64,000 nt of DNA from Lingula anatina (taxonomy: Eukaryota; Animalia; Brachiopoda). Location of the stretch: contig CM120643.1 of assembly GCA_051362555.1 (NCBI GenBank), forward strand, positions 11,036,001-11,100,000, in the 5' to 3' direction. Below, piece after piece: positions 1 to 46,684 of the stretch (the first letter of the stretch is position 1; each line of letters opens with the position of its first letter). The notes below the pieces were generated by a model. That model saw only the letters and a list, made by a program, of their open reading frames with translations, was not told the origin of the DNA and made no database searches. The translations under genes were made by a program, and so were the position numbers.

Positions 1-62
1 AAAAGCACCATTCCGGCATTAAAGAATAATAAAAACACTCACCACTGTATTCCCGACTCTAG

Positions 63-305
63 TGTTAGAATATGCCTTCGTGTTAATTTTCATTCTCTCA
101 GGGAGAGGCCCAACTTATAGGTACACTTTCATTGTAACTGTCATCCGAAAGCGAACTTTCCCGAGAGACTGAACCAGCATCCGAATAATCGTCAGAAATT
201 TCAAATTCCGAATTGCTAGCGCCAGACGTAAAACGTGTCATTGATTAGTTTCCTTTGTTTTCCGGTGTGTACTCAGCTACCCCCGGAGATACATCAATAA
301 AACGG
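63..305 (+). CDS. Possible signal-peptide exons of the receptor (~63-120 and 277-305); start codon probably upstream of the window
   Basis: Donor at 121, acceptor at 276 and donor at 306 join in phase to give ..YAFVLIFILSGRGPTYS/YPRRYINKT/ECPQ, with a hydrophobic core. There is no in-frame ATG in the window. Confidence 0.45.
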
Positions 306-428
306 GTAATATCATGTAATGTGATTGACTTAGGAGTTAAGTAAGTGTAAATATTGAATATTCAAAATGTTTTCTAATGATCCCAAAAAGTGACCCCCAT
401 GCCTAAAACCTGCACTTTAATATTTCAG

Positions 429-1330
429 AGTGCCCCCAGGTAGGGGAGGTATACCCAGTGCAGAATGGGAACTGGAGTTGCTCGGGTTATAGGGATAACT
501 GGTTCAAGACGAAGTGTACACTGGAGTGCCTGCCTGGCTTTGTGGTCCCTGTGGCAAATGTTACCATGGAAAATGTTACCGTGGAAACGGTTACGGTGAC
601 ATGTGGAATACATTTGAACTGGACTGGTGTATCAGCAACAGCACCACAGTGTCTCCCAGTGCCTGGTAAGAGAGTGAGAGAGAGAGAGAGAGAGAGGGGG
701 GGGAGGGGAGGGAGAGAGAGAAAAAGGGGTAGAGCAGGCAGACAAAAGGACGAAAGACGAGAGCGTGTTAGGGAGGGTGGGGAAAGAGGTACAGCTTGTA
801 ACAATGTAATGAACATAAAATGTTCATGTTACTGAGACAACATTTTTGAAATAAAAATAAGCCAGAATAATGAAATGTTCTGAGAGTAAGAAGTGAAAGT
901 ACAGTGAGGCAAAGAGTCAATTATTTTGTTCTGTAGCATAATTAAAAAATCATTATTAAAACTGTGGAATATCATTTACTAATATTATTACATGTACTGT
1001 ACTAGTAACCTTATAGTGCGTCATTTTCCTTAAACCGCTGTCCCCTCTACAGAAACAACTACACCACAGGCAGCCATAGTACCAGTGACCAGCACTGTGG
1101 AACAAAGCACAACTACGGTTCACAATGTGAATTTATCATTGCCAGTCGTCCTGAGTAATATTACCATGACAACTGGTACAAGTTACACAACTGAAGGTGG
1201 CAGCACTGGTACTAAAGATGGAGGTCACACGGTCCCAGTTTTTCCAATAGTTGGAGGTGAGTAAAGGGGAAGAATATGGTCTTGTGCATTGCATTTCTTC
1301 AAGTGCACCAGCTGAGTTTTATTGATTGAT

Positions 1331-1369
<39 letters not shown>

Positions 1370-4300
1370 TTATTATTTTTTTTTTATTAACAAGATCAAC
1401 TACAGAAGTTATTTGCCTCATGGTCAATGCAGGTGGGTTGAGAATGTTGTTGTTGTTGTTGTTGTTGTTTTTCTTTACTGTATAATGGTGTTTTGAATAA
1501 TGCATTGGCAAGAAGCAGAAGTGAAAAAATGAATTTGTCTGATTTACATGATACTTATTCATGCCTTTACAAGGTTTACTGCAGACCAGGCTGGGTAGAG
1601 GGTGCTAGAGAGATTATGTTTCAGAGAGGAAGATTAACACACAAATACATGCACAAATAAAAGTAAAGCTTTCTTATTTTTTTCATGTGACTGTCTACGC
1701 AATGATTTCATACAGACATACCTGAATATGAGTAAGATGTGTGTACTTATTTATCAATAATGTATTGCAGGTGTGTTAGGATCACTGATAGCCCTGATAG
1801 TCTTGGCAGTCCTAATTTATGTAGTACGGAGGAAATGTTGTTACTCTCCAAATAAGTGCTTCGAAAGGAACTATTCACTTGGTAGGAAAATACTTTTGAT
1901 GAGAAAAACTTATATAGTTTATGCTTTTATTATGTAATTTTTTTACATGTTTATCAGTTATTTTAATTAATTGTTAATTTTTCTTTTCATTGACTGTTGC
2001 CTCATAGAAAATTGCACTGGTACATTTCGCTGTATTTCTTGATAATTTTTAAATGCTTACTTGATACTTACATAATTATATGTGTAGATAATTATTTTTC
2101 ATATCAAGAATAAATCATTTAAATGAATATTTCAGTTATGTGGTACTTCATACAATTTTTCTCATTCAGCTAATTCAGAATCAAGTGATGGCTCAGACAG
2201 TAAATTTGGTAAGTAGTTAAAATAGATTATTTTTAAAGCTTAAATATACATATTACAGGTAGAGTTTTTTAATTAAATAGCTGAGGAGTAGTGACCTATG
2301 AGCCATTTGAATGTTTTGCCGTTATGATACATGTATAATACTTTCAGCACTAGTACCCAATATTTGTGCAAAATTTAACCAAATGGCATTTTCCACTTTT
2401 TTCAAAATAACCATTTCATTTAAAACTTTTTATTTAATCTAAATTCATGTTTGACCTTCATTAAGGTGCTGTGAACATGTGATTATGAATGCTTTTTTTT
2501 TTTTTTTTTTTGCAACATTTGCACTGTTTATAAATAAATCTATATCCAGACAGACGTGTCAGCTCTAAACTGAATCCCACAATGACAATTTAATATATTT
2601 ACCTGTGATTTGATTTCTTCTGACCCCCCTGGGTAAACTTACAATGGGTGGGGTAGACAAAGGGGTGGGGTCTACAAACAAAGGGGCGGGGTCTGCAGAC
2701 CAAGGGGCAGAGTCTGAAGACAAAAGACTATTCTTATTTGTGGACCTCAGACTCTGTAGCGCTTGGCCTGCCATACTTTTTATGGGTGTAAACAATCTTT
2801 CTGGATATGCACCTATGCATTAAGTATATTTGTTCTTATTTGTTATTATATGCACAGTGTATATTTTCCAAACCAGTAAGAGTATCCTTTTTAAGCCACA
2901 GACTGGTCTATTCTGCCATTTTTCTAGGAATGGTGAAGGAATCTGAGTTTTGATTTGAAAAGGCAATAGAGAGGGGATGGGGGGGGGGGGGGGGAGACAG
3001 ACCCTCAAAGATGTCCACTTGTGAAATGCAAAGCACCTCATAATATAAGCCCTCACCAGTCGAACCTGTTTAAATTTCAACTAGTAATGAAAAGCATGCT
3101 CATGCATGCCACAGTTTGCTAGGCACATGCATCTGTGTATTGGTTTTTGTAAAGAAGAAGCTGACACCCACATTTATGTTGTCATCCTGAGTTATTGGAA
3201 GCATAGTCTACTTTTGTGCTGGAAGTAGAGGGCGTGTCAGAGATGAAAAGGTTTCCTCCTTTATGTTTTCAAACAGGGGTACAAAAAAAATCTGGATTTT
3301 GTGTGAAATGTTCAAAACTTGAAAATAAGGGCATCTGCCCCTCGCCCTGAGAGTTTGTTTCTCGTGCACCCAGAAACCCAGGATGACACTTATAAATGTT
3401 TAATGAAGATTATAGGCCAAGTGTATTGTGTTTTTGCATCCACAAGATTGCTGCATGCCTATTCTGAATGTTTTATTTTGACAGATAAAGACGCTAAAGA
3501 GGAATTATTACCCCCTAAGCCAGGTTTGTAAATGCCTTCCCTTAAGTGTTCTGTTTCAGTTTGGACACGTATTTGCATGGTTATTAATTTTGAAAACTTG
3601 GTTTACTGCATCTTTACATTGTTCCCTCTCTCTCTCTCGTTGTTAGTAGGTCATTAAAAGGAACCATAACAGCTGGGTAAATGACAAAAAAGATGATGTT
3701 GTCTCGACATACATATATATTGTTTTCCTTGAAACTTTCTGTCAAAAGGCAAGAATGAAAATAAAACATCCAAAAAACAAGAAATTAGTAGTGGATTTTT
3801 AAAAATTGGTATCATTTTGGTAATGTCTCAATCTTTTCAATGAGCAAATATTATCAAACTTTCAGATACATAATTTTATAATCACAAAATTATATTTCTA
3901 TATAGAATTTGTGGTATTAGAATTATGCACTTGTTTTTACTAATTCCTTGCTTATTCAACATTTAATTTAGTTAGGTTTGAAAAATTATTTGCTGCTGAA
4001 TGTTTCCTTTGGGTGATATCATGATATGCTTGAATTCAGATCAGTATTTGAAAGATAAAAAATTGACAAAGAATGATATATTTGGCTTCCTTCGATGGGA
4101 GTTACAGTAATGTTAATTAAAATGCTTCATGTGTTACCGTATGTAAATTGTAAGACTTCTCATTTGAGATATTTCACATCATTTGTGGCAAGTCCACCTA
4201 CATTGCTCTTTTTTTTTTTTTTTTTTTTGGGGGGAGGGGGGAGGGGGGCTTATAGTAAGAGCATTATTTTAGGAAAGATGTTTTTATTTCATTTATTGTG

Positions 4301-7300
4301 ATTGATAGCCACACTTCAAAAAGAAAAGTTCAATTGTCGTAATTCTATTTTGGGTGCATGGTTTTTCTTCCAGTAGTGGGTTTTCAGGATGTCCTAGTAG
4401 TACATGTATTTGACATTTATGCTTCTTATATTTTGTCCCAGTGCTTTTATTTATTTTTTTCTTATCATTGCCATTTGCCTCGTGTTTAATGTGTAGGGGA
4501 TGGAATGACTCATTCTCCGTCACTGTAACAAGTATAAATATCTATAGTGCTACTGGCATGTGCTTCATTAAACCAGACATCTTTAAATTATTACCAAAGT
4601 TTATGATGATTTGACAAAATGCATAAAATAAATTTCCATAATCAGTGTGATAAGGTGAATATTTATAGATATTTATAGATAATATTTTAGTCTTACATCA
4701 GAGATTCCCCATGCATTTTTATATGATTATTCTTTTCCACCCTCTTTTTATTGCAGGACTGACCAATGATGCCTGTCGTGTAGAAGAAGATGGCACTCCT
4801 CATTCAGTAAAACCAACTTCCCATATAATTAATGTTTACAGCCCAAATGTGACTATCACCTCTGATAAAGTTGACCAGTTTACTGTGCAAAAAGTAGAGG
4901 ACAGTCGTGTGCCATGCGACTCAGAAAGAAATGTACAAACATCAGTTGAGGACAATTGCTGTGTCGATTTTACCTCAGGTGACCTTGACCTATCTGAAAA
5001 GGTTGAATGTGAGGACACAAGTGCTCTTTCAGCTATGACATCTTTACCGTCATTTTCCTTCGAAAAAGGTGAATTGAGTCATATTGAGACCCCACGGAAA
5101 TCCTTAATGTATACTGGAGATGGAGAGGGTGATGGCAATTTCAGGTCTGATTCCACTGATGACTGGTCTTCCCCAACTGATAACAGGACAAGCACAAGAG
5201 ACAAACCACACAAAAAAGAAGTCCCATACAACTTACAATCGCAGTTGTCAGACGATAGCACAAAATCCTCAGAAAACGGAAGCAACAATAACAACAACAA
5301 AAAAGGTGGGATTAATATCAAGAAGGCGTCCAAAGTGAGAGCGAACCAAAAGACTGTGGTGTCAGGGAACGCGAGCCCAGAAGACCATGCGTTTGCCTCT
5401 GGTTACGACTTTGGAGGCATTAACATAGAAGAAGCAGACGATGTGGAGGCAAACCAGGAGCTCCATCTGGTGGGAGATCAGAGCCCAACTGAGGGACATC
5501 CACCAGGGGGCAGTAGTGTCAGGAAGCCTCCTGTTGGTGCAAGTTTATCTACAGTAGGTGAGTGAATGATTGTGATTTCAAATCTTGTTTGAATTGTTTT
5601 AAAAAATGGCCTCATATTTATATTCTTCCATTACCTTCTTCAGCCAGCCAAGGTTTTTATAAGTCACTCATTCTTTTTCTAACTTTTTCCTTCAGTTGTG
5701 CAATGTCCCATTCACCATATGCTTTTGAACATTGAATTATGAATTGATGTGTGTTATGGTCTTGTTTCTCAGACACCAGTACAGCTGCAGAGGGCCAGTC
5801 TGACTCCACTGTCCCCAAGTGTCCTCCTCCTACTGTTGGACCGTACTGTGGAGTAGCAATTCCCACAAGCCAAGTAAAAATTGGTAAGTAAGTGCAGAAA
5901 CAAAGTTGCTGTTAAACTGTTTGACCAGTAGTAGTCTCAGTTTTCTGTGTTTTTTCTTGAAGTGTATTGTGCCTGGAACTATTGTTACAGTAGTAAAATA
6001 AAGGAAATGGCTTAATCACTAAGCAATATCCAGAATTGTAAGTTGACATGCAACAGTAAGGATTTTGTATGGATGAGAAATTTAGCTAAAACTCAGAGAA
6101 GAGAAATAGTATTTAAAAAATGTGATATAGTACCATCATAGATTTACTGTATTTTCAATGGGCATTTCTGTATTCCCTTGTTTTGATTTTTTTATCATCG
6201 TGTTTATGATTTTAAACGAATGGTTTGTCTTCCTATCTAGGCTCAAGCACAAGTCTAGCTATAGTAAAACTGCCAAGTCATTGTAATGATGGCCGCCAAG
6301 AAATTTTCATCTGGTACCACCTGGCTTCAGCAACAGCTCTTTTTGGATCTCAGACCTACACCATCACCAGTGCCAGCCCAAAGGATTCTGGGAAATATCA
6401 CTGGACAGTTTTGCTAAGTGATGGAAGTTTATTTCATGGACTGGTTGAAGTGACAGTCACAGGTGACAGCCTTGACCTTTGACCCAATAAAAAACCCAGC
6501 CTTTGACCCTGGAACTTTCTAAGCTCCACCCACTGACCTTGACCTTTTTAGATCCCACCCACTGACCTTGATCTCACCTATATAACCTTGCTAAACTAAA
6601 TCCAGCAAACTGAGCCTCTTTCAACTATCTCAGGTTTTCTAGATTTGCTCTGTTTACCTTTTCAGCATGTTACTTAAAAAATATTGTTTTGGTAAAAAAA
6701 TTATGATGTTATTCTAAATCCAGTAACCATACACTGGAAACTTTATTTATTTAATTTTATATTTACTTGTTTGTTTGTTTAACATGCTTCAGGAGACCAG
6801 CATTCTGAGGACAACTTAATGCCGTCAAAGACAGCTGATGTCTCCATCCAGCCACTCACTGCCAGTGGAGGACAGAATAGGCTGATAGAAGGTACTGGAA
6901 ACAGCAGTTCATTATCATGTAGAGCCTGAAGTGGTCTAATGCTGGACAAAGGCCTTGGCAAAAATTAGTAACATGGTTTCTGCTACTTGTAGAGTATTGT
7001 ATGTATATCTGAAGCATTCACTTCAAACCTTTCAAATTCTTTATATACTTAAGAAGGTCTGTGTTTTGTGACAAGTTTTGATATTTCCCCTAAAATTTCA
7101 CACATTTCTTAATTGTCAGGACATTGGCCAATATTGCAGCCTAGTTGAAGCATTCAATGCCAAAATAAACAAAAGTATAAAGTTGAAAACCATATTGTTT
7201 ATTTTAGGCTCTTCTGGCAGCCTCCCCCAGCCTGGGCTGACCTTTGACTTCCTGCGTCTTGTCACAAACATGAATCCCCTCCTGGTTCCAGTCAACGGAA

Positions 7301-9359
7301 TCAGGAACAGGACCCATGGTCAGAATTGTGGTCAGCCAGGGGGCAGTACTAGTCAAGGCACAGCTAGTATACACCAAAAAAGTGGTAACTGGGACCTTAG
7401 TTTGCATGAAGGTGATCAGACTAAAGGACGCACAGATGGGAAGGACAAGTCAAGCTCTTATAGTTTGGACGCAGGGACACAAACTGAAGGTTTGGTGCCC
7501 AAGTGGGTCCACAGTGATAACAGTACTGGGTCAGAGTCTGCTGTAGGTGATCACTGCTTTCTACAGCTGGGAGACCCTTATCTCTCCTCTTTGTCGGACT
7601 TTGGCCAATGGTCATTTGCTGACCACTCCAGTGTAGACAGTGGATATGTACAGCTGGCTGCTGGACAGGGCGGATGCAGCACCATGGAGACAAATTTCAG
7701 TAGCATGTGTCCACCATCCTTGGTGACGTTATCCGACAGTTCACAAAGCTCTGTTGTGAGCAGCGACTCTGTGTACAATAGTGGAAGTGAAAACAGCAGT
7801 AGTTATGATAGCAGTCACTATGGAAACAGTCACCTTAGCAATCGTAGCCGTGACAGTGGAACTCAGACTGATTTATACAGTAATAGCCTGCAGCAGGATC
7901 AGACATTCAGAAAAGAGTTGATTAACTGTAGTGAGCACATGGGCAATCACAGTAATAACATTGATAGCAATGGGATAAGTTATATTGGAAATGGGGAAGG
8001 ATTGGCTATGGGTGCAAATGCTATAGAACTTGCAGATTTTCCCAAAGCAGAGGGTAGGATATGCTATTTTATGACACAGTATGATAAGATGTCAGTGTAA
8101 ATGTATAGATATTGTGCACTTAAGTCTTTACTTAGTCATTTTGAACAACTTGGTGATGCATTTAAATTATTATTTAATTTTTCAGATCTTTATTGTTATT
8201 TGTCTGTATCTCAAAAAGTGAAAATTATAGATACAGTATAATTTTTTAGCTGGGAAATCTAACACAAAGTTGAGCTGGAAAAAAGGAGTCTATGCCTAAC
8301 AGTGGCCTGTCCCTCCTTATGATAGGGAATACCTTGCGACACGGCTGTTTCATGGCATTATCAAAATTGATTCAGTGAAAAGAATTTAACAGTGGTTTTA
8401 AAATACAAGTAGTTATCACAGAGCTGACAAGGAAGTTAAAGAATTATAGTTTGTCACTGTTCATTTTCCTTTTCTAAATTGTGTATTTTCTTTTCTCACT
8501 GTCAGATTCCAACAGTTGCACCATGCTCCTCTCAGAGCTGATGGAATGCAGGGAATTCGTGGATGATTTCTGTATACTGATGGACCCAGACAAGAATTGG
8601 GAAGAAATGGCAGCCATTTTGTTCAGCTTGCCTCCACATGTACTGAAGTATATAGAGTGAGTGTCGATATTTGTAGGCAGGGGAGTTTGGAAAAAACCTA
8701 TTTTGGTTGGAAAAGGGTTTTTTTTTTTTTTTTTTTTTCTTTTTTTTTGTATCAAAGTTTGTTCTGGGTTCAAGTTGGGCCTATTAAAACTTAAGAGAAC
8801 AAGTTGACTTTTTTCAGTTAAGACCCCCCCCCCTCTGAAATAATTGGCTTCAGATCTATCAACTGGCTGCATCTAAGTCATATAACAGATGGATGCTTCT
8901 GATTCCATGGGGTTGGGCCTTGAACATTTAAAGATGTGACCTTTTCACATATGGTTTTTCCATTACAGTGTTCCTTCTCTTCATGTGATACTTTTATTTC
9001 TGCACTCCCTTATTAACTAATTTACGGCCCTAGTTCTGGCTAACATGAAAAAAAATCATAAACTGAGGAAAAAAATGATTTGTTTCATTTTCTGAGTCCA
9101 TTTTTTTGTCCCACATTTGACTTGACTACAAGTCTAGGACTTTCTTTGCAGTTTTAAGACGCGTTACTTTGGTTACTGCACCGAGGTGGCATTGGACAAA
9201 GCCATGGCTGAGAACACGGGGTTCAAGGTCAGTCAGCTGGTACTCTGGCTAGTCATACGGGGTCACGGTCAAGCCGTAGAAGTAATCCTTCGCCACCACC
9301 GTGACTGCCACGTGTGCTCCAAGATGGCTGCTGTTCGTAACCAGGAGGTCTATGTGTAA
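429..9359 (+). CDS. Multi-exon type I membrane receptor: Sushi/CCP - Thr-rich stalk - TM - disordered tail with amyloid-like repeats - Ig-like domain - Ser-rich region - death domain (~1020 aa; 5' end uncertain)
   Basis: GT-AG exons that join in frame: 429-665, 1053-1256, 1771-1881, 2170-2208, 3485-3523, 4757-5557, 5773-5883, 6241-6462, 6793-6891, 7208-8053, 8506-8656, 9152-9359 (TAA). Sushi: ECPQ..NGNWSC..TKCTLECLPGF..VTC..NW..APQC. TM: VFPIVGGVLGSLIALIVLAVLIYVV-RRKCC. Death-domain pattern: FVDDFCILMDPDKNWEEMAAILF..TEVALDKAM..FKVSQLVLWLVIRGHGQAVEVIL. Confidence 0.85.
2625..2725. repeat. Short ~21-bp G-rich tandem repeat (ACAAAGGGGYGGGGTCT-like) in a receptor intron
   Basis: 3-4 degenerate copies visible. 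Confidence 0.55.
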
Positions 9360-12300
9360 CAGAGAGGACTCTGATGACAGCTGTGGTTTTATTTCAAGAT
9401 GGCTCTTCTGTGTGTTGAACATATATTTAAACGCCAGTGGTGACATCTGGTGTCAGAGTGAGGTGCAGAGAGACAATCCAAACAGGGGTCATTATTAGAG
9501 GACAAAGCAGTTTTACCGTGAATTTAAATCATGAATGATTTACCGACTTTATGGTGTTGTGATTATAAATGTATGATTGTGATTTGTTTTAATGTAAGAA
9601 CTACATGTACAATGTACCTCTATGCATCTTGTTCTTTATAATTACAGAGGGATCCTGGGAAATCTTACTTAACACAGTGATAACAATCAAGATGGACAAG
9701 ATACTTATTTTCTTACATGTATCTCTTTTTTTTGTTAGTAATGGACACATCTTATGATGTAAGACACATTTGATATGTTATAGCATTTTTTCTGCTAGAT
9801 AGTCTGCATCATGGGCCATTGTTACATGTAGGATGCATCTGATTTACAGTACACATTTGATGTCAAACAAGTTAAAAGACCACATTTTTGAAAGTAGCTC
9901 AAGCAAATTGACAGGATTTTAAACAGATGTTTAAGAGAATTTCCATTATCCGTAGATACTAGGTACTAGTTTATTTTGATTTGGATTGGTAGTTTTTTCT
10001 TGATAAATAATACAGTTGGGCTGCAAAGTTAAAGATACTGCTGGTTTTTCTTAAAGATGTTTTGTAAAGAACACCATTGTAGCTTTGTGTGTGATATGTT
10101 ACTGCTTTTAGTTAAGCATTCATATGGATACATTTGGCATTACAGTTGTTATTTGATATGAAATTATAGGAGAATGGTGGACTGGGAACCATTAGTTGTT
10201 AGATAATACCTTTTTGTACATACCACATTTTTATATGTATTTAATTCTGCTGGCAGAAGATGAAAGTGAAGAAAAGATTGATCTCTGCATCATAGCAGTT
10301 ACCATGTGGGTTGGGGGGAGGAGGTTATATCTTCACAAAGATATGCCTATTTTGATATACTCAGTGATAATAAACTCGGGACCGTAGCCAGAGGGTGGGG
10401 GGGGGGGGGGGGGTGAACGGGAAAAGGTCCAGTTTGGGTAATATTTAATTTAGGAACATGTGTGCACAAAGGTTTCGTGCTTAAAGGTCCACTTTAGGAC
10501 TCGTAGACGATAATTGCTGTATGCTATCATGAGCCTTAATAGATTTGGGAGCACGAATGCCCAAATTAATGACTAGGTCCACGAATTACGTACCCCAAGG
10601 TAAAATTTGTGGACACGAACTCGGTGTCAGAGCGGACCGTGTGTCGTAACAGTGTGCTTTTAATTCTACGTGACTTAAGTTCATAAACTCCTATTCCATT
10701 TATAAGGCCAGACTTTTCAAAAAAAAAAAAAACTTTACAATGGCTGTTTAGGGCCTAAATCTACTTAAGGCATTGAAGTGATTTATGAAGTATTCCAGCG
10801 AAAAGAGGTCAACTTCAGATTGAGAATTGTCGAGACAGCAGTGTGATTGAAATCAGCCCTTAGCAATGTATGAACACATATGCTTCAATGAGGTACCATG
10901 CATAGTTTGCACATGTATATGTGCATAAATGAGAATAATTGACGTTGGATACATGTAATAAATCCACTGTTGAATAATTTGTGGAAGGTGTGGAAATAGA
11001 AGAACCATTAGAGGATATGAATCCACCCTGGCTGAACGTTTGAATATTAATGCTAGTATTAAGTAATAAGAATCATGAAAATGTAAAATAAATCACGGAA
11101 CGTATCATGAGGATGCTTGGTGAAGTTTTACGACGACTGAATTAAAAAAAATAGTGATCTTGGAAATGCATTTCGAAAGCGAGTTTTGAGTAATAGGATA
11201 CGGTGAAATTGATGAAAGGTATCGAAAGAAAGATAAAAATTCCACTGCCTTGCTGACAACACTGGTTAGGATCTAGGTTGAATGAATGATTGGATATGCA
11301 ATTTATAAGCTTTTAATTTTATAATTTTGAATATTCTGCTTTCATTTCCATAATTACTAGTAGCTGCGCAAGACTGAAAAATGCATCAATGTGTTAAGGT
11401 CATTAAAATTGTTCCATTTCTGTCGCCCAATACGCAATTGTCAATTCTTTACTTGTGATGCTGTATTATGTATGTTGGAGAAACGATGCAAGTTTTAAAA
11501 TTGCTTAAATGTCATTGAGAACATGAAATGTTCATATCGTGTGAAACGTTTTTGTGTAGGACTTTTCTACGGTGTATGAATAAAACTTCTCCAGGCAATG
11601 TCTAGGTTGTTTGTATTTTATGAAGTATTCTTGCTGGTGAGTCGGGAAGTAGGAAGTTGCAGGCTCAGAGTTTGTATTGACCGACGTGAATGACAATATA
11701 AAAGAATGAAAAATGAAAAATTATTATACTGGAGCCTTATTATACTGAAACGGATATCACTTTTCAACCTTGTCACAAGGCCTTCAGTCAGGTGAACTGA
11801 TTTAGAGTTGTGAAATAAATCGTGAAGACGAGTTTGTCTTATTAGGGAAATGATCGATATCATAAGGGAGACGCGTTTACAGCTAACCATCAAAACAGCG
11901 GTTATTGCAATTATTCTGGAATCTCAGAAGAATATCACGAAAAGCCAAACTTTTTAGAAAAAAAAAACATGGACATGGACCCTTTGGTAAGTACAGGAAA
12001 ATCGTCGTTTACCCCAGGAGAATTTGTTTTTTTACCAAAAAGAACACTTGCTATCCCTTTAAAACCAGCAGTAAAGATGCAGTTACAGTTAGCCTATTTA
12101 GTGAACTTTACATTGTACGTATAATACTTGTATACATATACTTACCTAGCTAGTCAACTTCTCCATATGGACCTTAAATTCTACTTTTGTAAATGCTTCC
12201 ATGTTCTCATCATGCTCTCATCTATGCTGTCATCAGATTTCCCCGAGCTTTCTTAGAAATAGAATCTTTCACGCCACTGTTATAACTTGAAACGGTCTTT

Positions 12301-13952: not shown

Positions 13953-16900
13953 ATGCTTCTGGTCATTGCCACGTCTGTTCTTCCATGTCTTCTACTGCTG
14001 TGTGGTGGTGTGGCGTCCTACCCGTCAGGGGCGTACATACCGTCCGGCGCGTGCGACTCCATGCTACCCAGCCCAAACGCGGACTCAGGCCACGGAGCAG
14101 CGCAGCAGACCGGGTCCAACCCCTTTTCTTTGGTCCTAGGAGCGTCCAAGTACACCCCCGGCCAGCCGTATAACGGTGAGTAGTTACCTTCCACAGGGAC
14201 CACAGAGAAATCTGTACACTTGATAGTCACGGGTATCTGACTGTTTACATTAGCTGTGCACATTTTTATTCTATGCCCAGCAATGATTTTGACACTTGAA
14301 GAGCGTCAATACCCTTTGGAGCTCTGGTAGAAAATAGTAGGCTAAGTACTAGAACTCTCAGTGAAATGCATTTTCAACAACCTCTTTGTATTTCAAACGA
14401 ATTCAAATAACCTCTTCTCCTATAAACCCAAATTCTCAGCCTCGTCTGAAAAAGACGAGACTTGTCAGTTTGCAATAGTGAAACGATTCTATTACGGCTC
14501 TGTAAGCCGTCATATTTGGGACGATGCAGTGCGATTTCTATGAGCAGTGTGGTGTTATGGGAAACCCCATCGTGCCTTCACTATTTAAATCTTTCGGGCT
14601 TAAAGGGGTAGAGTAGTATCGAAAATTCAGGAAGTGAAACTAGTTGTGACCCGAGCATTAAAGATGAATGAAAAACTTATACAGAGCAGCCAGGATCTCT
14701 TTCGTAATTTTTTTTGTCATATTTTCAGTGATTTTTCGGTAGGTAGGCCTATATACTTTAAATATCGAAGTGTTGGAGGGAAATTCCAGTATTTTCTAGG
14801 TAGTTGTTTTGTTTCTCGCATTTTTACAGGACAGTAGATTTTTGATCTTCGTACGCGTTCTATGTTTGTTTGGAATCGTTGGTAGGTTACAAAATGACGT
14901 AAGATCAAAATGTTGGTCCTCTTCATTTCAGATTAAATTCCAAAATAAGGTAACTGTTGTCTAGCATTTCACCTATATCATGCTTCTTAGAAATCAGACG
15001 CAATATTATATATAAGCAGAGTGATTTATTTTATGCAAAATCGATCACATTTTTGTCTGAAAGTGACCTTTTCACACGGAAATTATCCCTGTAGGATATT
15101 TCTAAGCAAAAAGGAGCAGAACGGAAAAGATAAAATTGTATGACATCCCTAATTTTTAGAAGTTGATGAATTCATCTCTGAGAAAAAAATTCCACATAAC
15201 AATAACAACATCATAAATATTGGTATTATAATAATTAGCTAGCTTTACCCGTTTTTGTTTACCTACGTGGGAAGAAACAACGTGTAACTTGCTTACAAAC
15301 GCATTTTAATGTAAATATTATGTTTTCATTTAACTGTTCATTTCACTTATTTCAATGTCGCATACCGAGTGTGTCTGCGTCTCCACTGGAAGGAAAAAGA
15401 AAGTTATAAGCATTGGCACTTTCTAGAATAAACACAATTAAAAAAGCATCAAACGGCGGGGATCATCAGGACTCCATGACATGACACATTTTTATGCAAA
15501 TAATTCAACCACAAAATTGTTGACTCACCTTGTGCTTTTAAACAGGTTCTTATGCCCGGACATGAACATGTAGTTCTAGATTAAAATTTATTATTGTCAT
15601 TATCACAATATATATTTCTTGTTTAGCTCATTTAGTGCATTAACAGAAGGGTCTTTCCACAAAAACTTAATTTTTATGCAGTGGCCCAGACACAACTTTC
15701 ATGTCCAGTAGCAATAGGCCTACTGTGTTGACCGGCAACCCCCTCCCTGCACCTATGCTATCGAAATTACGTGCCTAAGACCTACACCAGTCTTAGACGA
15801 TCCTTGTCTGAACACAGCGCTTAGTATGCGCACCTTTTTTTTTTTTTTTTTGCTTCGTAATGATGACGGTGTAGATTGGAAGCTGCACAGCTTTTTAATT
15901 CAAATCAAAGCGTAATTTGCTTGTTGAAAAGATAAATGCGTGAATTCCACGGCACAGTTAATTGGTCCCGTTTCGTCTGCACACTGAAGTGCCACGATTT
16001 TTTAAATAAAGAAGCAATGAATAAAGATAATAGCGACCACAGGTCAATTTCTTACCTTTCCGTTTCCAACTTTCAGTTTCTCTAATTGGACCTAGTCACT
16101 ATGAGGGGTTCATGATACAAGCCCGGTCTAACACCACAGGGAGCAGAGTTGGGACGTGGCAGACATCTACTCTGACGGTTCTGAATGAAAACTGCAGCGG
16201 TGCAGAAGGCAAAGCGCTGGTTCACAAGGCGACACTAGAGGGTACAGGGAACATGACTTTCACGTGGACAGCGCCGCCTGCAGGCACCGGATACGTTAAA
16301 TTTTAGTAAGCACACGTAGGGATTATAAATCTCATTTTTTGCAAAAAAAAAATATATATATATAATAATAATAATAAATAAATAAATAATAATTATTATT
16401 ATAATGATCGAAATTACCCTTGATTGCGTTGACGGCACGTCCTGTAAATCGGCAATGCCGTGCTCATCCGTCTAATTATTTAAAGAGAAAAACACATTTC
16501 TCGAAGAGTTTGTTTTTAAATCTCAGCTAGGTGCATCATTTTTTAATATAAATGGCATTTCTGTCAACTCATATTAGACAAAGGAAAATATAAAGAACAG
16601 TTTTGAGTGTTTGATGCGGATGATAGGATTAAAAACAGACAGACAGACATCATAACATCCTTTGATTATTTTCAGTGCAACAGTGGTGCAAGAGAAGGAG
16701 GTGTTCTGGGCGAAGTTCCCAGGGCCGATGTTGGTGGGAGAGGTAGGCCTATGTAGACGATTCTCTTCTAAGAGAGGGATTGAGAGGAGGGAGAGAGACA
16801 ATGTGGAAGAGAGAGAGAGAGAGAGAGAGATAGAGAGAGAGAGAAAGAGATGGGGCGGGGAGAAATAAAGAGATAGAGATACGGTTGGAAAAGAGAGAGA

Positions 16901-18499: not shown

Positions 18500-21489
18500 A
18501 TAGCCATAATCTAAACGTGCGCCGCGCACTTTAGTTGGCAAACCCTTTGGAGTAGACGAACAATTTCCGAATGAGATCAATGAAAAGAGAAAGCTTTTGA
18601 TGCCCCGTTTGAGAGCAGCAAAAATGGGTTGGAAAGAAGGCTGTTTTGGTTGTGGATAAATTATTCATTGACGATCGTGAGTTTATCCCCCCGACATGCA
18701 TCAGAGCACGGCACGTGGAACAAGTACTACTCAGCAGGATGTGATTCATGCCACGGGTCAACAACGCGCTCGCAGCCTGTCAGACCGTACCGAGAGAGGA
18801 AGACGAGGGAGACCTCGCTAGACGAATTTGCAGTACACCCGTCACATGGAACATTGATAGCGCTAACAACTTGAAATGGCAGAAATTATCAGCGTAAACT
18901 GTCAAGGTATGGGGAGTTTTGAGAAGAGAAAAGACGTCTTTCAATATTTACGAAATTTGAAATGTAATATCCTCTGTTTACAGGATACACATTTTATTAT
19001 GAAAAAAAAGCTCAGATAAGGAATGAATGGGGTTACGAAGCCTATTTCAGTTCTTATATTTCAAACGCCCGAGGCGTAGCAATTCTATTACAAAATAACA
19101 TAAATTTTAAATTGCTACAGGAATTCAAGGACGAATCCGGGAATATACTTATTCTTACATTTGATCTTGATGATAAAATAGTAAAAGTTGCAAATATCTA
19201 TGGTCCTAACACTGATAACCCCGCATTCTTTGATCGATGAAATAGACAGTGAATTCCAAATAATCTGTGGAGATTTTAACCTGCTTCTGAATCCAGATAC
19301 TGATTACTATAATTATTCACGGATAAATAACCCAAAGGCAAGATTAAGTGTTTTAAATATGATAAAAGAAAACGGCTGTGTAGACCCACATGGAGAACTA
19401 TATGGCAATGTGTCTAATTTCACTTGGCGAAAAAGAAATCCAGTTAAACAACCCAGGCTGGATTTTTTTCTCACCTCAGATAATTTAGTTCCAAATTTGG
19501 TCTCAGTTAGCACCCTACTTAGTGATAGATCAGATCACTCACCAATTAAACTTCAAGTAAAATTTGACAGTTTAAGCAAGGAAGAGGACTTTGGAAATTT
19601 ATTAATTCCCTTCTATGACATGACCTATGTCGAAAAAATTAATGAAGCCATACGAGATTTTAAAAATGAATATTGCATTCCTATATATAATCTTGAAAAT
19701 ATTGACAACATTCCTGACCAGGAATTGCAGTTTATGGTGAATTATCAGATGTTTCTAGAACTTTTGCTTTTACGTTTAAGAGGAACGACTATTTCGTATG
19801 CATGTTTTAAAAGAAAAAATTACAAGAGGTAGAAAAAGGGCTTATGAAAGAAATAGAACAATTAACAGAAGATTATGAAAATTCTGATGCCCGTCTTCAA
19901 CTAGAATTTGAAAGGAAAAAACAACAGTTAGTTGAGATGAGAAGTGCAAGGTTAAAAGGTAGCATTATTAGATCGCGCGAGAAATGGTTAACTGATGGAG
20001 AAAAACCCAAAAAATATTTTTTCAGACTTGAAAAAAGAAGATTTACAGAAAAAATTATTCCCCGACTTCAGGTTGGTGAAAATGAATATATTACTAAACA
20101 GAATGAAATCTTAAAAGAAACAAAAAAGTTTTACGAAAAATTGTACTCAGAAAATACACAGTATGCTGATATTGACTGGCAAACAAATTAAAAAGATTTT
20201 AATGTACCAAAACTGACTACAGATGAGAGGGAAAGCCTAGAAGGCCCAATAACTAACGTTGAAGCCAAAATATTCCTCACTAAAATGAAAAATGATTTAA
20301 AGTCCAGGTTCGGACGGATTTACTGTGCAATTCTTAAAGTTTTTTTTTTTTTTTTTTTTTGGACGAAAGTAGGGACCTCTGTCATACGATCTTTAAATTA
20401 TGGTCTTACACATGGGCAGCTCTCTGTCACCCAAAGGGAGGGAATCATAACATGCATCCTGAAGGAGGATAGACCAAAACAATTTCTAAAAAAATTGGCG
20501 CCCTATTACACTATTGAATACCGTTTACAAGATTGCCTCAGGTGTCGTACCAAGTAGAATAAAAACGATATTGGATAAATTGATAAGTAAAGAACAGACT
20601 GGTTTCTTAAATATAAAAGGGAGATACATAGGGGAAAATACTCGTTTAATCTACGATCTCATGCAATATACTGAGGAAAACCATATACCTGGAATATTAC
20701 TTCTAATAGATTTTGAGAAAGCATTCGATAGTATATTTTGGAACTTTCTAAATCAAGTTCTTATCTTTTTTAATTTCGGTCTAGACATAATAAATTACAT
20801 TAAAACTTTTTATAAAAATATTACTTCAAGAGTAAATCAAGGAGGTCATTTATCCGAAATGTTTTAACCACAGCGTGGCCTGAAACAAGGTGATCCGATA
20901 TCACCATATTTATTTTTGATATGTTCTGAAATTCTTTCAGTAAGCAGAAAGAATAACCCTCAAATTAAAGGAATACAAATTGGGGAAAATGAATACAAGA
21001 TATTGCAATATGCAGATGACACGTCCATAATCTTAGATGCTTCTGAACAGTCCCTTAACGCCTCCCTACAGGATCTAAGATGGTTTGAAAAAATTTCGGG
21101 TTTAAAAATGAATTATGACAAAACTCAGGTTATTTGGATAGGGAGTAAAAAAAAATTCAAAAGAGAAACTGTGCAATAATTGGACACTAATATGGGGTGC
21201 AACGTCTTTTAAATTATTAGGTATTAAATTCTATGTTGAACTAGATACTATATGTGAAAAGAATTATCGGGAAAAAATTGAAAATACTGAAAGATTACTA
21301 ATTATGGGAAAGACGAATTTTGACCCCCTAGGCAGAATTACAGTAATTAAAAGTCTCATGATATCGAAATTTAACCATCTTTTTATTTCACTGCCTAACT
21401 CATCTAACCAAATAATTAAGGAGCTAAAAAAGTTAATCTTTGGATTTCTTTGGAAAGGTAAGCCGGATAAAGTAAAAAGGGAAATATTA

Positions 21490-21523
<34 letters not shown>

Positions 21524-21899
21524 TGGAAAACTAAATATGATAAATGTAGAAGCTTCAATAATGGCATTAAAGGAGGTAGAAACTATATACCATATACTTT
21601 GGGATTGGGATATTGTACAAAATTTCTTACGCCAAGTAGAAGCATGGTTAATTTCCTGTAATATATATTTAAATTTCAGTAATATACCGTTTATTCTAAT
21701 TGACATTAATGAACGCAATGTATCCAATATAATCATGACTATACACATTAAATTTTTCATATACAAAACAAAATGTCAGAAAGACGCACTGTCACTCAAA
21801 AAAACTTCAACTTTATTTAGAAAATATATACAAAATCTATAAGAAAAAATACACTGTATCTCAAGATGTAGAAAAATTCAATGTTATATGGCAGAAATG
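18500..21899 (+). mobile_element. Decayed L1/Tx1-clade non-LTR retrotransposon (ORF1 C-terminal remnant + frameshifted ORF2 APE-RT)
   Basis: ORF1 remnant FGVDEQFPNEINEKRKLL..VVDKLFID. ORF2 from ATG 18876: IISVNCQG, LCLQDTHF, GDFN, RLDFFL, SDHSPI (APE); IDFEKAFDS, QGDPISPYLF, QYADD (RT). Many frameshifts and an internal deletion near 21560. Confidence 0.93.
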
Positions 21900-22448: not shown

Positions 22449-25400
22449 TTATTTCAATAAGAACAATAAAATAAGTACATCGAGGACGGGAAATACCGAA
22501 TTCATTCGCGACGCAATCGAAGTGGGACGCACAGCCTCTCTAACAAATGTGGGTGGGTCCCTCTGTTCCAATGACTCGAACGTTACAGCGTCTATGTCAC
22601 CAGACTCTGCGTAGAGACTTTTGAATAATACTCCATTTAGTCTGAGAACAAACGCAGGACCAATTCCTTCGCCGTAGAACTCGTCTCCTCCAACGGGGTA
22701 CAGCTTCCAGCGACCAAATGGACCGTAGAACATGCGGAGAAAGTTCTCCTCGTCCTTGTGAATGATTTCGATTTCGTCATACAGCGGCTCCTTAAATTTT
22801 CCTGTGTAACTCCTAAGAAGTCTATCCGCAGTCCCTGGCGTTCCTTTGGTAGGTTTTGTCGAGTTTGGAGGGTCCGCAAAAGGCTCAGGGAAGGAGCAAA
22901 CTGAGGAGCTATTCAACCACGGACGTTCTCCAAGGAAAAGGTCCAAAATAAGCATCCCCAGCGCCTGCTTCTTTAGCCATGAACTAGGCATCGTGTTGAA
23001 GGTGTAATATATGCCAAGCCCTTTGGATGGAATGAGAACCAAATTTGAAGAGAATCCCCATGATAATCCAGTGTGAGTAACCATGGGATAACCTGAAATA
23101 TTGATTAAAAGTTGGTTTTCTGAGAACGGTTGGCGCTTTCTTTCTCTCTCTCTCTCTCTCTTTTTTTTTTTTTTAAACTAAAACTCACAATTTGCTCGTG
23201 GAGGCGATTGCTTTCTTTTAAAATCAAAACATCTTTTGTGATTGACAACCATGCATACAATTATTACCTCGGTAACTGCCAATCCTCCACCCGAATCCAT
23301 AGTGGGAAACATTGAACGTGACTGGGATGATAGGAGTGGAAAGATATTTGTCCAGTGAAGACGGGCAAGCAATATTCGGTCTGTACGTCTCCTCTAACGC
23401 ATTCACCGACACAACCTGCGACTGATCATGAGCTTTGCCCGAGTTGAGGTGAAACAGCAGCCACTTTGCCATATCCACGGAGTTGCTCAAAATGGAACCA
23501 GAGGGAGAATTGCGGGCCCAGGATCTAATAATGAACGGATTAACATTATCGCAATAAGAACTTTCAACCAGATTAAATAAGATGTTGTCGAATTGTCAAT
23601 TTGAAAAGGTGATGACAAAAAGTAGATCTGAATAAAAAGAAAAACAAGATCAAACTATTTGACGTTGAAACGGAAATTCCGAACACAAGCTATCGAAAAC
23701 TATCAATAATAATAATAATAATGATAATAATAATAATAATGATAATAATAATAATTATTATTATTATTATTATCTGATATCAAACTCACTTTAAAAACTC
23801 TAAAGAGCCTATCCTCAATCCTCCGGGCCGTTCATCATCGTAATAGTGGGGAGATGCAATTGACAGTCCGTCTAACTTGGCGGTGGATATAAAAGTGGTG
23901 GTATCCATTCCCAGTGGAGAGAGAATGGTAGCTCTCACCGCCTCTTCCCAGCTCAGGCCAGTAAGTTGCTCCGTGATGAGACCGGCTAGCCCGTACATTT
24001 GATTGTTGTAAAAGTACTCCGCACGCAGCGGGGCTGAACTGTTGAAATACTTAAGCTTCCTGAAAAAAAAAAAGCGGCCGCACTGTTAGTTCGCTATGGT
24101 CAGCTGCTATGACATAGGAAATAATGGGCCTATTGTCTGACAGTCACGACTGAAGGAGGAGAAAGCGGGACAAAATGTAGGCCTACTTTTCGCTTCAGTT
24201 GCCCCCTTAACCTACCAACAATCATGGTAGAAAATTGGGAAAGAGAACCCCCAATCCAACTGTAGATATACAGGATTACTAAAAACGTAAGCAGCTAGTG
24301 ATACCATGATACACTAGTGTAAAGATCTCTGTCCTTTATTGTTACAAATTGAAAATCACAGTCATAGAACTCTATCGTTTCAATATCAAACATCTTCTTT
24401 ACGTCATGGCATCAACGATAGGATAATTTTAGCAGAAACTATTACGGAGAATACGTTGCCGTTGATTAATTAATTTGTTTATTTATTCATTTATTTATTT
24501 ATTTACGGTGCAATTGACTAGTACCTGACATTGCATGGTTCGCCATTACACGAAGGCAAAGATCGTTCAAAGAATTGGACTTCCCTAAGTAGCAATCTGA
24601 TAGCTTCTATTATGTCTGTTATTTGCAACATTAATAAATAGCATTTAGTGACATTTCAGCTTAGGGACAGAGAAAGACAAAACATCCCAAAAGTCTAAAC
24701 TTTTACGCACATGTTTTGGATTTGACAGATAAATCTTCAGTGTTAAATAACTAAATTTCATTGCATTTACACTAGTACATAGTGTCATATAACATATAGC
24801 CTTCCAAAAAAGGGACTGTGCTGCACTCATTACCAACAAGTGTACTGGCAGTTGAGTAGGTAGAGCCAATTGGGCTCTGCCAAAAATGTTTTGTATTTTT
24901 CTTACAAGTAGTCGTACTATATAACGATTTAACATAATTCATATTTATTTATATTTGCATTCCTATTGTACATTTTCATCTACCCATGTAGATGCATACG
25001 ATACAATGAATAAAGTATATAAAGTATATAACAGCTGACGTTATAATTAATAGATTGTGATTTTGGGGAGAAGATCGCTAAAAAGTTTCTCAAGGTTTCT
25101 GCGCACCCACGAACACCATTTAAACGCCAATGTAACGACACCATTGAGTACTTCAGAACCTTAGCAGCAATTTTATTTAAAAGCCTGACTTCGCAATATA
25201 TCGTTATAAAGGCAAATTAATCCCTTTTTCATTGAAACATTGTAACAGGGGCCCATAATTCCTTGACATAAACTTTGAAACCGGTTTCGGGGCAACCTCA
25301 ATTTGACGGCAAGGGGTTAAAGCCCATAATCCTATTGTCACCTATGCCATTTTCGTGATAAGATCTTGTTTAGGGATGTAGTTATGTCCCATGCCTATTG

Positions 25401-28400
25401 TTATCTCACCTCAAAATAGAAAGCTGTTTAAATGACGATAAACGCTCATGGGTGCAAATGCTTATATTATATTATATTATATTATATTATATTATATTAT
25501 ATTATATTATATTATATTATATATGCTTAGCAACGGGAAATATATATGCCTATATTTTATATTTTCGCGGGGACTTTTTTAATTGTTTTCAATCAGAAAA
25601 ATGGTAGTTATCAGGCATTATTGAACAATTATATGCAGAGTAACCTCATTTTCTGTGTTTTGACGATCATTATACAGTCCCCAAGACTTACTCCCCAATG
25701 GTCTCCAGTGAGAAGTTGTTTTGGAGCCGTATTCTGTTGTAGTCGTTGAGACCCGTCCTGTGGCTTAGAATATCTCTGGCAGTCACTCGGGCCGTGAGTT
25801 CCTCTCGTATAAACGTGAGATTTTTCAGTTCATCGAAAGATGTCAGTGGAGCATCTAAATCATACCTAAAATTTGAAACAAAAGGAATTTAGTTGCTTGT
25901 GTATACAGGTTATGTACTAGTCCTAGATGATTCATTGTCACGTCTGAAAAATAGGCTTACAACAGTCACACAAATCCATAGTGATCTGGAATTCTGCTTT
26001 TTTACAGCCAACGTTTAAATGTTCTATAGATAACATAGGCCTATTTACAGCCAGAATGGCGTGTGATGAATATTGAAGGGGGGGGGGGGGTATAAAGAGC
26101 CCCTCCCTTTTTTGCTGGGAAAAGGTCCACTCATGAAGGTTTCACGGTAAAAGGTCCACTTTTTCAGAAAAAGAACCCCCTTTTGAAATTTCTGGCTATG
26201 GGCCTATATTGATATGAGTGCAGACATGTAACTCTTGTTGGAGGCATGCAGGAGATTAATGGCAGTTAGTGGACTACACGCTAACCGACACGAGACTTTT
26301 ACAGAGAGCATGATGCCAATAACCTTGCGCGCGTTATACGTCACAGGTCTTGCGTAACTACCCACGTGCTACGATTTTTCCCTTGGGGGGGGGGGGGGGG
26401 GGGGGGGGGGCAGCAAGCGGACATTTTGTACAGGAGCAATGCAAAGACGGGTGAAAACGATACGTTGTTTTTAACCAAAGACGATGTCCCCGGGGCGAAA
26501 CTGCCAACACCAAAAGTAAAGGAGCATAAGCTACTCTTACAACCGGTCGTGCGTGCTTCTACGAGCGGTTTGCGTGCAAAAAATTGGCCAAGTAGTAAGA
26601 TACACGCACGTGGAGCGTACTATTTTTGGTGGACGCAAACACGACGCAAAGCACGCAGCCCGAAAACTGGCCGGCCAGTTTTTCGCTACGACCTGTCTGC
26701 GACAAATAGAACGCCTGGATCACGCTCGTAGCACGCAAGACAAAAGTACTGAGTAAGTGCGCTAGGCGTGCGTGTAACGCAGGAAAAGCATGCAGAAATT
26801 ACGGGGTATTTTACCACGAAGACGTACTTACCACGCAAGAGACTCGTAAGTTTAACTTGCTTTCAATGTACGTGTTCACAAAAAGGGGGGTGAGCGCACT
26901 TCTTCCGTGCGTTTATCTTACTTCCAAAGTGCGTGGCGAGGACTACTACCATACCTGTGAAGTGCGTCACACTAACACGACGCACGTGCCCAGCACGATA
27001 AAAGTGCAGGCGATCCCGAGCAACCACTGCCAGCATTGCGTCACGATCTTCGGCCTCCTCTAGCATTAGCAGCTGTAGAAGTCGATGGCGCATCCTTCTT
27101 GGAAGTGCCTTTTTGGAAGCCAAAACAGTGAATGATGAAGAGACTCGGTGCTCCCTTTTATATTATTTTGATTATCCGTGCGTTCCACTTCCGTGCTTAT
27201 TACGTTTCTCTTACGTTTCTCTTACTTCGTAAGTACGGTTTCTGAAAACGTACGCTTCACTTGCAATACACGTATGATTATCTCACTCACTGTGTGCGAC
27301 ACGAGTACAGATCGTACGTGCTCCTTACTTCTTCCTACTTCCAAAAAAAGGCGTACAGACCACTTGCGGGCCCCACGTTTAGAGCACGACACACCTACTC
27401 ATAAAGTACTTACTACTTCGTCCGCTGCGATTTAATTTTCATCCTGCGACAACGCTACGTCTGACGAGAACTCCGAGGACGCACGATCTCTAAGCACGCA
27501 CGACGGGTTGTAAGAGAGGCTATACCAACGTTGTTTTGAAACGATGTGGTTAGCCTGTCAGTGGCAAGTTGGGGAGAAAAGAGCAGCACTGATAGCAAGG
27601 TACTGTGTACACGTGAACCGGCAAAGTTAATGATAATTTCATGTTGCAAAAGCATAATTAAATCAGTTAGTTATTATCCAAACGATATTATTTGAATAGC
27701 AGATACATAGATCAAACTAACAACAATAAAATATTTTGATGACATTGAAAATCAAAGCCTGCGGTGCACGATAGGTTGAGGAGGACATTGCCACAGCAAG
27801 TAATGCATGGATTTTGTTACATAACACCATATGCTTGTGTCGTCGTTAACTCTGTTGTATTATTACTGATCAAATTAATACCTGATATTATTTCTCAGGC
27901 TTCCAAGTACAAATCAACTTATTTTTGTGACTATTGACCTCCATGTCCCATCATGTGTGCAGGTTGTTTATCATTATTATCATTATTATTATTTGTTCAA
28001 GCACATTTTGATAAAGTGGCTATGCTTTAACATGAAAAATTCAAAACTTATGCTGAAGTTTAAAAGATTAAATCATCAGTAGTATTTACAATTAAAGCTA
28101 TTTGATTATGTAGATTTGATTTTCAGTTATCTTGATTATGATATGAGGTTTCTGCCTTTTTCTCTTGCCCTCATTCAATATATAACAAGCAAATTGATAG
28201 TGCTTTATTACAATTTTTGCTTTATACTTTCAGATGTAAAAACTGTGTAGCAGTTGGTAAAGCTGTAGAGATTGATGTGAGCATAGATCAGGGGAAATGG
28301 TATTAGAGAAACTAGGAGGACAAGACATAGATAATGTACTAGTAGATCCATCATCACAGCAAGGGTACATGTAGATGGTGTGATCTTGTCCCTGAAGCTG

Positions 28401-30204
28401 TGCCACAAGTTTTCAACTGGTTGAGTCCTTACTAAGACAAGCTGCTGCGGTGTGAATCGCAATATGTACATTCAGGTTATACGTGGCAGATTTATGACAA
28501 AAGAGACCTTCACAATATACTTCAAAGGAGTTTTTCTGGCGTCTGTGCCTCATCAAAAGTACACAGTTACAGTGACTAGAACATTGTCTGCAAATAGTGA
28601 GGCAGTGAAGGCTGCAAGGTGCCATTGTTTTTCAGTATTAAGAATGACAGTATCTGTTTTTTTATTTATTTTTTTTATTATTCATTTTTAATGGGAGGGA
28701 GACTCACTTTGTTCTTTCTATGCCCATTCAGTTACAGTAAGGGTTGGTGGCAATATATGGTAAATCTGTCATGCCTGTATGTAGAATTTCTCTTGCTCAA
28801 ATTTCTACATTTATTGAGTGCATTATGAAGTTTCCTGACTGATTAATGAGGTTACTTGTAGAAATATCTTGCCTACACACATTTTGTGATATTTTTACTA
28901 CTTTATACATATAATTATTAACATTTCATCAGTGGTGTGTGAAAGGTACTTGGTATTTGCATTTTAGAACTGTAGATCTGTGTACCAGCAGGGTTATATT
29001 GCAGTAATATCTGTTTATGTTTCTAAAAATAAGCTTCATGTTTGATAATTAATTGGTTTGAAATAAATAAATAAATAACCCAAACAAAATCAATTCATTT
29101 TATATTTCACATAATCTGTTTTTATTATTTCTTCTAAGCATTTAATCATAACATCTCCCATCATTATAGTGTTATTGTGTAATAACATTGAAAGGTTCCA
29201 AAATTTTATTAACAGGTTGATGCTAACGTATTACAAATAAATATAAGCATCAAAGCATATTTCCTTCCTCAAATATATCACACGTACCACTGGCATAATA
29301 CCGGTAGAGATACAGGTAAAGATGACAGCCTTGATAACTGGGTTCACAGCTCTGTTAGTGCAGCACGGTTAATTAGTGTCAGATTGTTATCCGATAAAGT
29401 TTGCTACTAGTACCTGGGAACAAAAGGTCTGGCACTTGCCAATCAAGTTGATAAAATCACAAACCCTGTAGAAAATAGAGCATACCTGCCCAACATTGAT
29501 TTGTTCAGATTCTTGACTAAGGGGTGCGTTACTGGTGACAAGGGCCAAGACTTGAACTTAGGGGGTTTGGTATGTCACTGGACATTCCTCTCGATTTCTG
29601 CCCAAATCTAATAAAGCCTGAGTTGATTGCCGTAAATATCAAATTTGTGAACAGAATGAGGAATAATGACAGTAATGATAAAATGCTTGAAAGTACCTGT
29701 CACCTTCGCCACAGTAACTATATGGGCTGTGCCCCCCCCCCCCCCCCCCACACACAACCACAGGCGACACCTTGCGGAGCAAGCGCGCGTAATCCAGGGT
29801 GCAACTGAAAATAACCTTGTCGCGCGACCCGTGTATGGATTTGATGACCTTCGGTGTGGGTTTTTCTACTTTCTGGCCATCTTTTACTTCTGTGAAAATC
29901 ACTATGGAAACTAAGTTTTGAAGGGGTGCATGTTCTTAATTTGGATAAATAGTATAAAATATGGAAATCTTCATCAGTATTTTGAATTTTTTAACCCTTA
30001 GTCATGTTAAATATCTAACGTACCTTAACCTATTAATAATATAGCTTTTAAAACAGAAGTTAATTCGTTGACGAAAATAAATTCACTGGAATTCAGAACA
30101 ATTATAAATTAAAGTGAAAGTCATTTTAGCAGGTTCACAACAGTGGATACCGATGCTGCTCAGTCCCTCGAGATCTCCCTCTCCCCCCTGCCCCCTCCCT
30201 CACC

Positions 30205-30260
<56 letters not shown>

Positions 30261-30558: not shown

Positions 30559-30633
30559 AGCGGTTGTATGTTCTTTTGGATCTGCCCTGATGAGTGTGGA
30601 CCAGACGTGCAGACTGAGTAAGATAAAGCGTCA

Positions 30634-34063: not shown

Positions 34064-34120
<57 letters not shown>

Positions 34121-36729: not shown

Positions 36730-36761
<32 letters not shown>

Positions 36762-39480: not shown

Positions 39481-39527
<47 letters not shown>

Positions 39528-39821: not shown

Positions 39822-39876
39822 AGCACTTGTACATGTACGTTCTTTTGGATCTGCCCTGATGAGAGTGGACTAGACG

Positions 39877-46653: not shown

Positions 46654-46684
<31 letters not shown>

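Follow-up and report, generated by a model that had tools for sequence, protein, structure and literature searches.

In the brachiopod Lingula anatina a membrane receptor carries, in its cytoplasmic tail, a pair of 22-residue repeats that appears, from sequence patterns in this one species, to be a candidate of unusually good shape for a functional amyloid motif. It lies outside the definitions of both the RHIM and the HRAM. The repeats, R1 (5305-5370) and R2 (5413-5478), are on the plus strand of the 64,000 nucleotide stretch that we analysed (the window, to which all coordinates refer). In the reading that we favour, at about even odds, they would form a cross-beta module of two parallel, in-register rungs, and clustering of the receptor would cause this module to nucleate a signalling amyloid. 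The original prediction, made from the DNA letters, had proposed such a pair. The pair that it described is real, and we find it to be old and expressed. It lies within the disordered cytoplasmic part of a receptor that crosses the membrane once, and has the design features of an in-register beta-solenoid with two rungs. The 36-residue spacing, which the prediction likened to that of HET-s, is not a signature.

The gene was delineated with reads from four raw-read RNA runs, out of nine that carry the same species label, coming from three studies. The exon that holds both repeats (4757-5557), on whose expression the prediction depended, is covered in all four runs and spliced on both sides with GT-AG joints, at a mean read depth over 5161-5504 of about 1, 9, 16 and 9, and the two stranded runs point to a plus-strand RNA. 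The spliced reads rule out that the frame of the repeats is an artefact of a non-coding open reading frame. The frame stays open for 1008 residues over eleven exons, ending at 9359; eight of the ten exon junctions are joints seen in the reads, the one from 6462 to 6793 was taken from loose read ends, and the one from 665 to 1053 from splice signals (GT/AG) and frame. In the resulting protein a Sushi domain is followed by a Ser/Thr stalk, a transmembrane segment, a polar tail of roughly 215 residues, the repeats (residues 380-437), an Ig-like segment, a stretch rich in Ser and, at the C-terminus, a helical end.

All of these exons lie on the plus strand. The Sushi (CCP) exon (429-665) matches Pfam PF00084 with 22.5 bits (cut-off 20.7), and the 5′ end of the gene precedes the window, with loose read ends before position 426. 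The loose ends of eight reads before 429 suggest an upstream exon that ends in a short Cys-containing stretch of the P-L-Y-C type, faintly resembling the end of TACI/BCMA-type cysteine-rich domains. The Ser/Thr-rich stalk exon (1053-1256), recognised from its translation, is joined by reads to 1771, the start of the transmembrane exon (1771-1881; read joints). This exon contains the single hydropathy peak (2.92 at residue 144; the second best is 1.21), which points to one transmembrane helix, followed by basic stop-transfer residues. The cytoplasmic part begins with a 39-nucleotide exon (2170-2208; read joints) and an optional in-frame exon of 39 nucleotides in the juxtamembrane tail (3485-3523), whose acceptor is used in five reads and skipped in eight and whose donor was placed by GT and phase. 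An intronic repeat at 3827-3915 collects partly matching reads on both strands. The large exon with the repeats has read joints on both sides and is predicted to be disordered around them, the charge/hydropathy index being negative over about residues 300-440 with the exception of the segment at R1. It opens with an Ile/Val/Asn-rich stretch (about 4810-4920, plus strand) that has the highest beta propensity there and no Pfam match.

Beyond the repeats, two exons (5773-5883 and 6241-6462; read joints) encode a cytoplasmic Ig-like segment, which was recognised by eye from its motif, the Pfam Ig_3 match being below cut-off (E = 0.22), and which apparently lacks the usual Cys pair. A Ser-rich, largely disordered tail follows (6793-6891 and 7208-8053; read joint from 6891 to 7208, a loose end for 6462 to 6793, frame open), and then a helical, death-domain-like region in the last two exons (8506-8656 and 9152-9359, the latter with the stop; read joints). 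The likeness of the C-terminal end to the death-domain pattern was read by eye. Queried singly, the two exons gave no Pfam match, and PDB sequences returned ankyrin-type noise or one weak match; the last exon alone models as all-helical at low confidence (pLDDT 52.5), with no Foldseek match. An inner Ig segment beside a death-like domain is reminiscent of MALT1. The single pass and, if the reading by eye is right, the helical death-domain-like C-terminus are features of the death receptors of the TNFR superfamily as well, from which the protein differs in its Sushi domain, its tail of about 840 residues, its inner Ig-like segment and its repeat pair; its N-terminal ectodomain lies outside the window.

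R1 (residues 380-401 of the in-window frame, net charge +5) and R2 (residues 416-437, net charge -7) lie where the original prediction had put them, in one shared frame and 108 nucleotides (36 residues) apart, with a non-repeated linker of 14 residues (5371-5412, plus strand) that is modelled as a short helix. The matching of hydrophobic and N/Q/G positions that had been claimed is also borne out, with 11 of the 22 columns identical. Aligned without gaps they score 53 in BLOSUM62, a value that none of 300 shuffled versions of the exon attained (mean 27.6, s.d. 4.3, maximum 43), and the pair is the top 22-residue self-match both of the exon and of the whole 1008-residue frame, where the runner-up scores 35. 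No third copy was found in the six frames of the window, the next score being 17 against 80-83. Of the 11 shared residues 8 are encoded by different codons, and beyond the 22-residue core the DNA is identical at only 13/42 positions, so that the duplication is old and its protein pattern has been kept; we infer that selection maintains this pattern. A recent tandem duplication of DNA is ruled out as its origin by the 13/42 figure and by the identity over the whole unit, which is 47/108. The repeats lack Pro, and their fraction of N, Q, G, V and I is 0.55 and 0.45, compared to 0.24 in the remainder of the exon. Amyloid signalling motifs are described as having a similar bias (bioRxiv 2020.01.06.895854).

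Read variants are in keeping with the view that the repeats are constrained, though the figures are suggestive only, as they come from the 40 variants listed out of 301, of which 23 fall in the repeat exon. Two of these are in the 132 bases of the repeats, where the remainder of the exon would predict 7.3 (P 0.02). Those in R1 are one synonymous change and one K to R change that keeps the charge, R2 has none among the 40 of 301, and the linker has two changes of A to V. Over positions 1-10300 reads labelled as the same species show as many as 5-10 mismatches to the window per 100 letters, the mark of a very polymorphic species or of a cryptic species.

The five opposite-charge pairs claimed for the repeats (K/E, K/E, K/D, R/E and K/E, R1 before R2) are present at columns 6, 7, 10, 12 and 16, and columns 9 and 22 pair S/D and N/D. 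The in-register parallel alignment is the sole alignment of R1 and R2 that gives five charge pairs with no clash of a charge over a hydrophobic residue; eight other parallel shifts give one or two pairs with three to seven clashes, while 13 antiparallel registers reach at most four pairs, with one clash. The eight columns that we propose to face inward carry no charged residue, a count that is partly circular as we picked the columns ourselves. At the composition of the exon, at least five opposite pairs in seven columns would be expected with a probability of about 7.5e-5, a figure calculated post hoc. When the residues of R2 are permuted, column-by-column charge matching has a p of 0.046 if all 11 non-identical columns are used, and of 1.0 for the seven variable polar ones, as all seven are acidic in R2. 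Once the repeats are oppositely charged overall, this matching adds little and is weak evidence when taken alone; what carries weight is the make-up of the variable polar columns and the restriction of the five pairs to one register.

To that extent the charges would suit a linear motif that was duplicated long ago within a disordered tail and whose copies have drifted or specialised without stacking, the basic patch perhaps for membrane lipids or the import machinery and the acidic patch for another partner. Such a motif is also consistent with R1 extending a Lys pair just upstream of it, with R2 lying within an acidic zone, and with the lack of a significant family or fold match for the pair. 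We nevertheless regard it as unlikely. The variable polar columns are acidic in seven of seven cases in R2 and basic in five of seven in R1, while the hydrophobic, Asn, Gln and Gly columns stayed fixed; a strict alternation of inward and outward residues over 22 positions is long for a linear motif; and AlphaFold makes strands of both repeats at the same offset.

The structure predictions, in which a two-rung beta-solenoid was looked for, give two long strands offset by 36 residues and resolve no arches, as DSSP reports two unbroken strands. AlphaFold2, given 67 residues and no alignment, placed strands at 7-24 and 43-60, an offset of exactly 36, with a helix in the linker (mean pLDDT 72, pTM 0.42); the five models have a pLDDT of 72, 70, 60, 59 and 53, three of them under 60. 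When the model was compared to known structures, Foldseek ranked HET-s(218-289) first of nine matches, at a level that is not significant (E 2.9, TM 0.16), and among 48,161 chains VIA-align found HET-s (2kj3) as the sole chain with Z of at least 2, again a weak match (Z 2.0, rmsd 3.2, 50 residues aligned). A second comparison with the nine Foldseek chains, two of which are HET-s, gave none at Z of at least 2. The nearest solved shape to the modelled repeats would thus be a two-rung in-register unit, with scores far below significance. The model is of a monomer in which both repeats are already strands, and together with the antiparallel register of four pairs and one clash this would also fit a pair that closes within one chain, as a two-rung clasp or a hairpin, and serves as a small scaffold or an autoinhibitory latch that does not polymerise. 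This, too, we think improbable: a two-rung unit would keep complementary open faces, its polar, disordered flanks offer no evident cap, and two strands would probably bury little.

The known system closest in layout to the proposed cross-beta module is that of HET-s and the fungal HRAM1-5 (PF11558), which have two pseudo-repeats of about 21-22 residues (PMC4518210). R1 and R2, with 22 residues each, a period of 36 and a linker of 14 residues (15 in HET-s), conform to it, as HRAM loops span 6-18 residues in 154 of 155 sequences (PMC4518210). Because these loops vary so much, a spacing of 36 residues is not diagnostic as a HET-s signature. The likeness extends to opposite charges in register, a trait that marks HRAM repeats (PMC4518210) and amounts to five pairs here, to columns of Asn and Gln, and to a terminal Gly-Asn/Asp. 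The core spacing differs: in the positional pattern given in the text of the same paper (hydrophobic residues at 5, 8, 10, 16 and 18, and an invariant Gly19), no register of R1 and R2 joins the hydrophobic pattern and Gly19. The best ungapped register has 11 of 16 features, with Asn14 in place of Gly19, and 11 of 500 shuffled controls also reach 11; when gaps are allowed the best is again 11, and 140 of 500 controls reach it, which is chance level. Mutation of the invariant Gly blocks the fibrils of both HET-s and the RHIM (PMC4262963). The pair matched no Pfam family at E ≤ 1, PF11558 included; this family captures only 38 of 155 HRAM pairs (PMC4518210), which makes the test a weak one.

Other differences from the fungal motifs concern charge and context. 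There the bridges are mixed, whereas here one repeat is wholly basic and the other wholly acidic, and the pair sits in the middle of the tail of an animal Sushi-transmembrane receptor rather than after a HeLo domain. Additionally, in fungi the receptor carries one low-charge copy and the effector a charged pair (PMC4518210), an arrangement that is reversed here, the charged pair being in the receptor. We also looked for an adjacent NLR gene with one copy of the motif, and found no further copy in the six frames of the window. By its pattern, then, the pair is like the HRAM in layout but is not one of its members.

Nor, judged by its motifs, is it a RHIM. As had been claimed for the VQxG core, the 1008-residue frame has no (I/V)Q(I/V/L)G, the core that defines the RHIM (PMC12119088), and the pair does not match PF12721 (RHIM) in Pfam at E ≤ 1. 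With the RHIMs of RIPK1, RIPK3, ZBP1 and TRIF, and with fungal PP and bacterial BASS3, it has in common a beta-prone motif of about 20 residues that is set in disordered sequence and has a death-like domain nearby, the unstructured flanks typical of a RHIM (by the charge/hydropathy index), an N-terminal h-x-h...V-x-h spacing and, as in ZBP1, tandem copies; it differs in lacking the G-phi-Q-phi-G core and in being strongly charged. The idea of stacking by opposite charge has a precedent, since Kajava et al. proposed it for proteins with tandem RHIMs, namely the sensor ZBP1 and unnamed invertebrate proteins (PMC4262963). Membrane receptors with amyloid motifs in their tails have also been described, for instance PGRP-LC and shrimp SRB2 (PMC10268257), and the cRHIM of PGRP-LC/Imd and of SRB2 is similarly an amyloid-type motif in a cytoplasmic tail (PMC10268257; PMC13506858). 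The cRHIM is a single motif and not a charge-complementary pair, and the present receptor differs from those that carry it in its Sushi ectodomain and its own Ig-like and death-like regions, with no Imd-like partner identified. Tetrads with Gly as the fourth residue close each repeat (VVSG in R1, HLVG in R2), but the VxxG tetrad is uninformative, as the receptor tail has four of them, and the cRHIM definition (PMC10268257) is too loose to serve as a test. That R1 and R2 are highly diverged RHIM or cRHIM copies, co-assembling with a RIPK1- or Imd-like protein that bears an ordinary RHIM, and so a variant of a known animal motif, is quite improbable, for although I3, I5, V11 and A13 fall on HRAM core positions 8, 10, 16 and 18 in the 11-feature register, the closing Gly is the only invariant residue of the cRHIM (PMC10268257) and opposite-charge stacking was proposed for invertebrate proteins with two or three RHIMs (PMC4262963), the core and tetrad resemblances need different registers, the first has Asn for Gly, and the RHIM core and the PF12721 match are both absent.

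Searches for relatives gave no orthologue, paralogue or single-copy partner of the repeats in the collections used; these are mostly microbial, and the blank results therefore say nothing on novelty. Word-index searches found no homologue of the repeat region among 329 candidates of 467-2000 residues or among 25 of 112-2000 residues, and none of the last exon among six; DNA scans found none in metagenome, viral and prokaryote contigs (0 of 343, 0 of 11 and 0 of 195), and PDB sequences gave no match to the repeats at E ≤ 10. A profile of both repeats run against 1.84 billion representatives had three matches at E ≤ 0.001, all to multi-repeat proteins that sum 5-12 short stretches, which we rejected as unrelated. 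One 12-residue match among 565 for the last exon was dismissed, being off-frame in a bacterial-type gene. Full-text literature searches, with a coverage that leaves out most subscription papers, returned no title or abstract on such a motif or on a Sushi-transmembrane receptor with such repeats.

The window contains no paralogue of the six receptor exons tested. Downstream of the receptor gene there is a gene for a secreted Reeler-domain protein (PF02014; about 13955-16306, plus strand). Broken pieces of a non-LTR retrotransposon, with endonuclease and RVT_1 matches, lie at 18968-21842 and 33875-34568 (plus strand), the 3′ part being present twice, and two genes of the beta-lactamase-like family (PF00144), both with introns and nearly identical to each other, stand in tandem at 22449-30630 and 35438-39869 (minus strand). 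Exon-like open reading frames of another gene, at 45314-47580 (plus strand), look cyclic-nucleotide-binding-like by eye and have no Pfam match, and a fragment with two in-frame stops at 50975-51223 (minus strand), which we take to be histone H4-like, is likely a pseudogene.

If the cross-beta reading is right, R1 and R2 would fold onto each other, each providing one rung of a beta-solenoid whose strands are parallel and in register. I3, I5, A8, V11, A13, Q15, T/L17 and V/L19 would face inward, N4, N14 and Q15 would form ladders, the five K/R-over-E/D pairs would be outer salt bridges, and arcs would lie near columns 6-7 and 9-10 and near Gly21. Because the folded unit would expose one basic and one acidic face, on which the next chain could dock R1 on R2 with the same five pairs, it is predicted to be self-templating, while R1 alone or R2 alone would repel itself and stack poorly. 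Clustering of the receptor by its ligand would nucleate the fibre, as has been proposed for NWD2 (PMC4344463). The fibre would crowd the downstream Ig-like and death-like regions, and may recruit a partner that bears the motif too; the signalling would be immune or lead to cell death. The idea is directly testable, as the 58-residue peptide is cheap to make and has five predicted salt bridges, and rungs that are all plus and all minus make a clean charge-swap rescue possible. A broader reading, which we consider somewhat less likely than not, is that animals have, besides the RHIM, another family of amyloid signalling motifs. It would be a two-rung solenoid in the style of HET-s, with one rung fully basic and the other fully acidic, carried by a death-receptor-like membrane protein that would nucleate its own fibre and recruit dedicated partners with the same motif. 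If true, the two-repeat design of fungi would be found at the receptor end of a pathway in animals, in one chain with a death-like domain.
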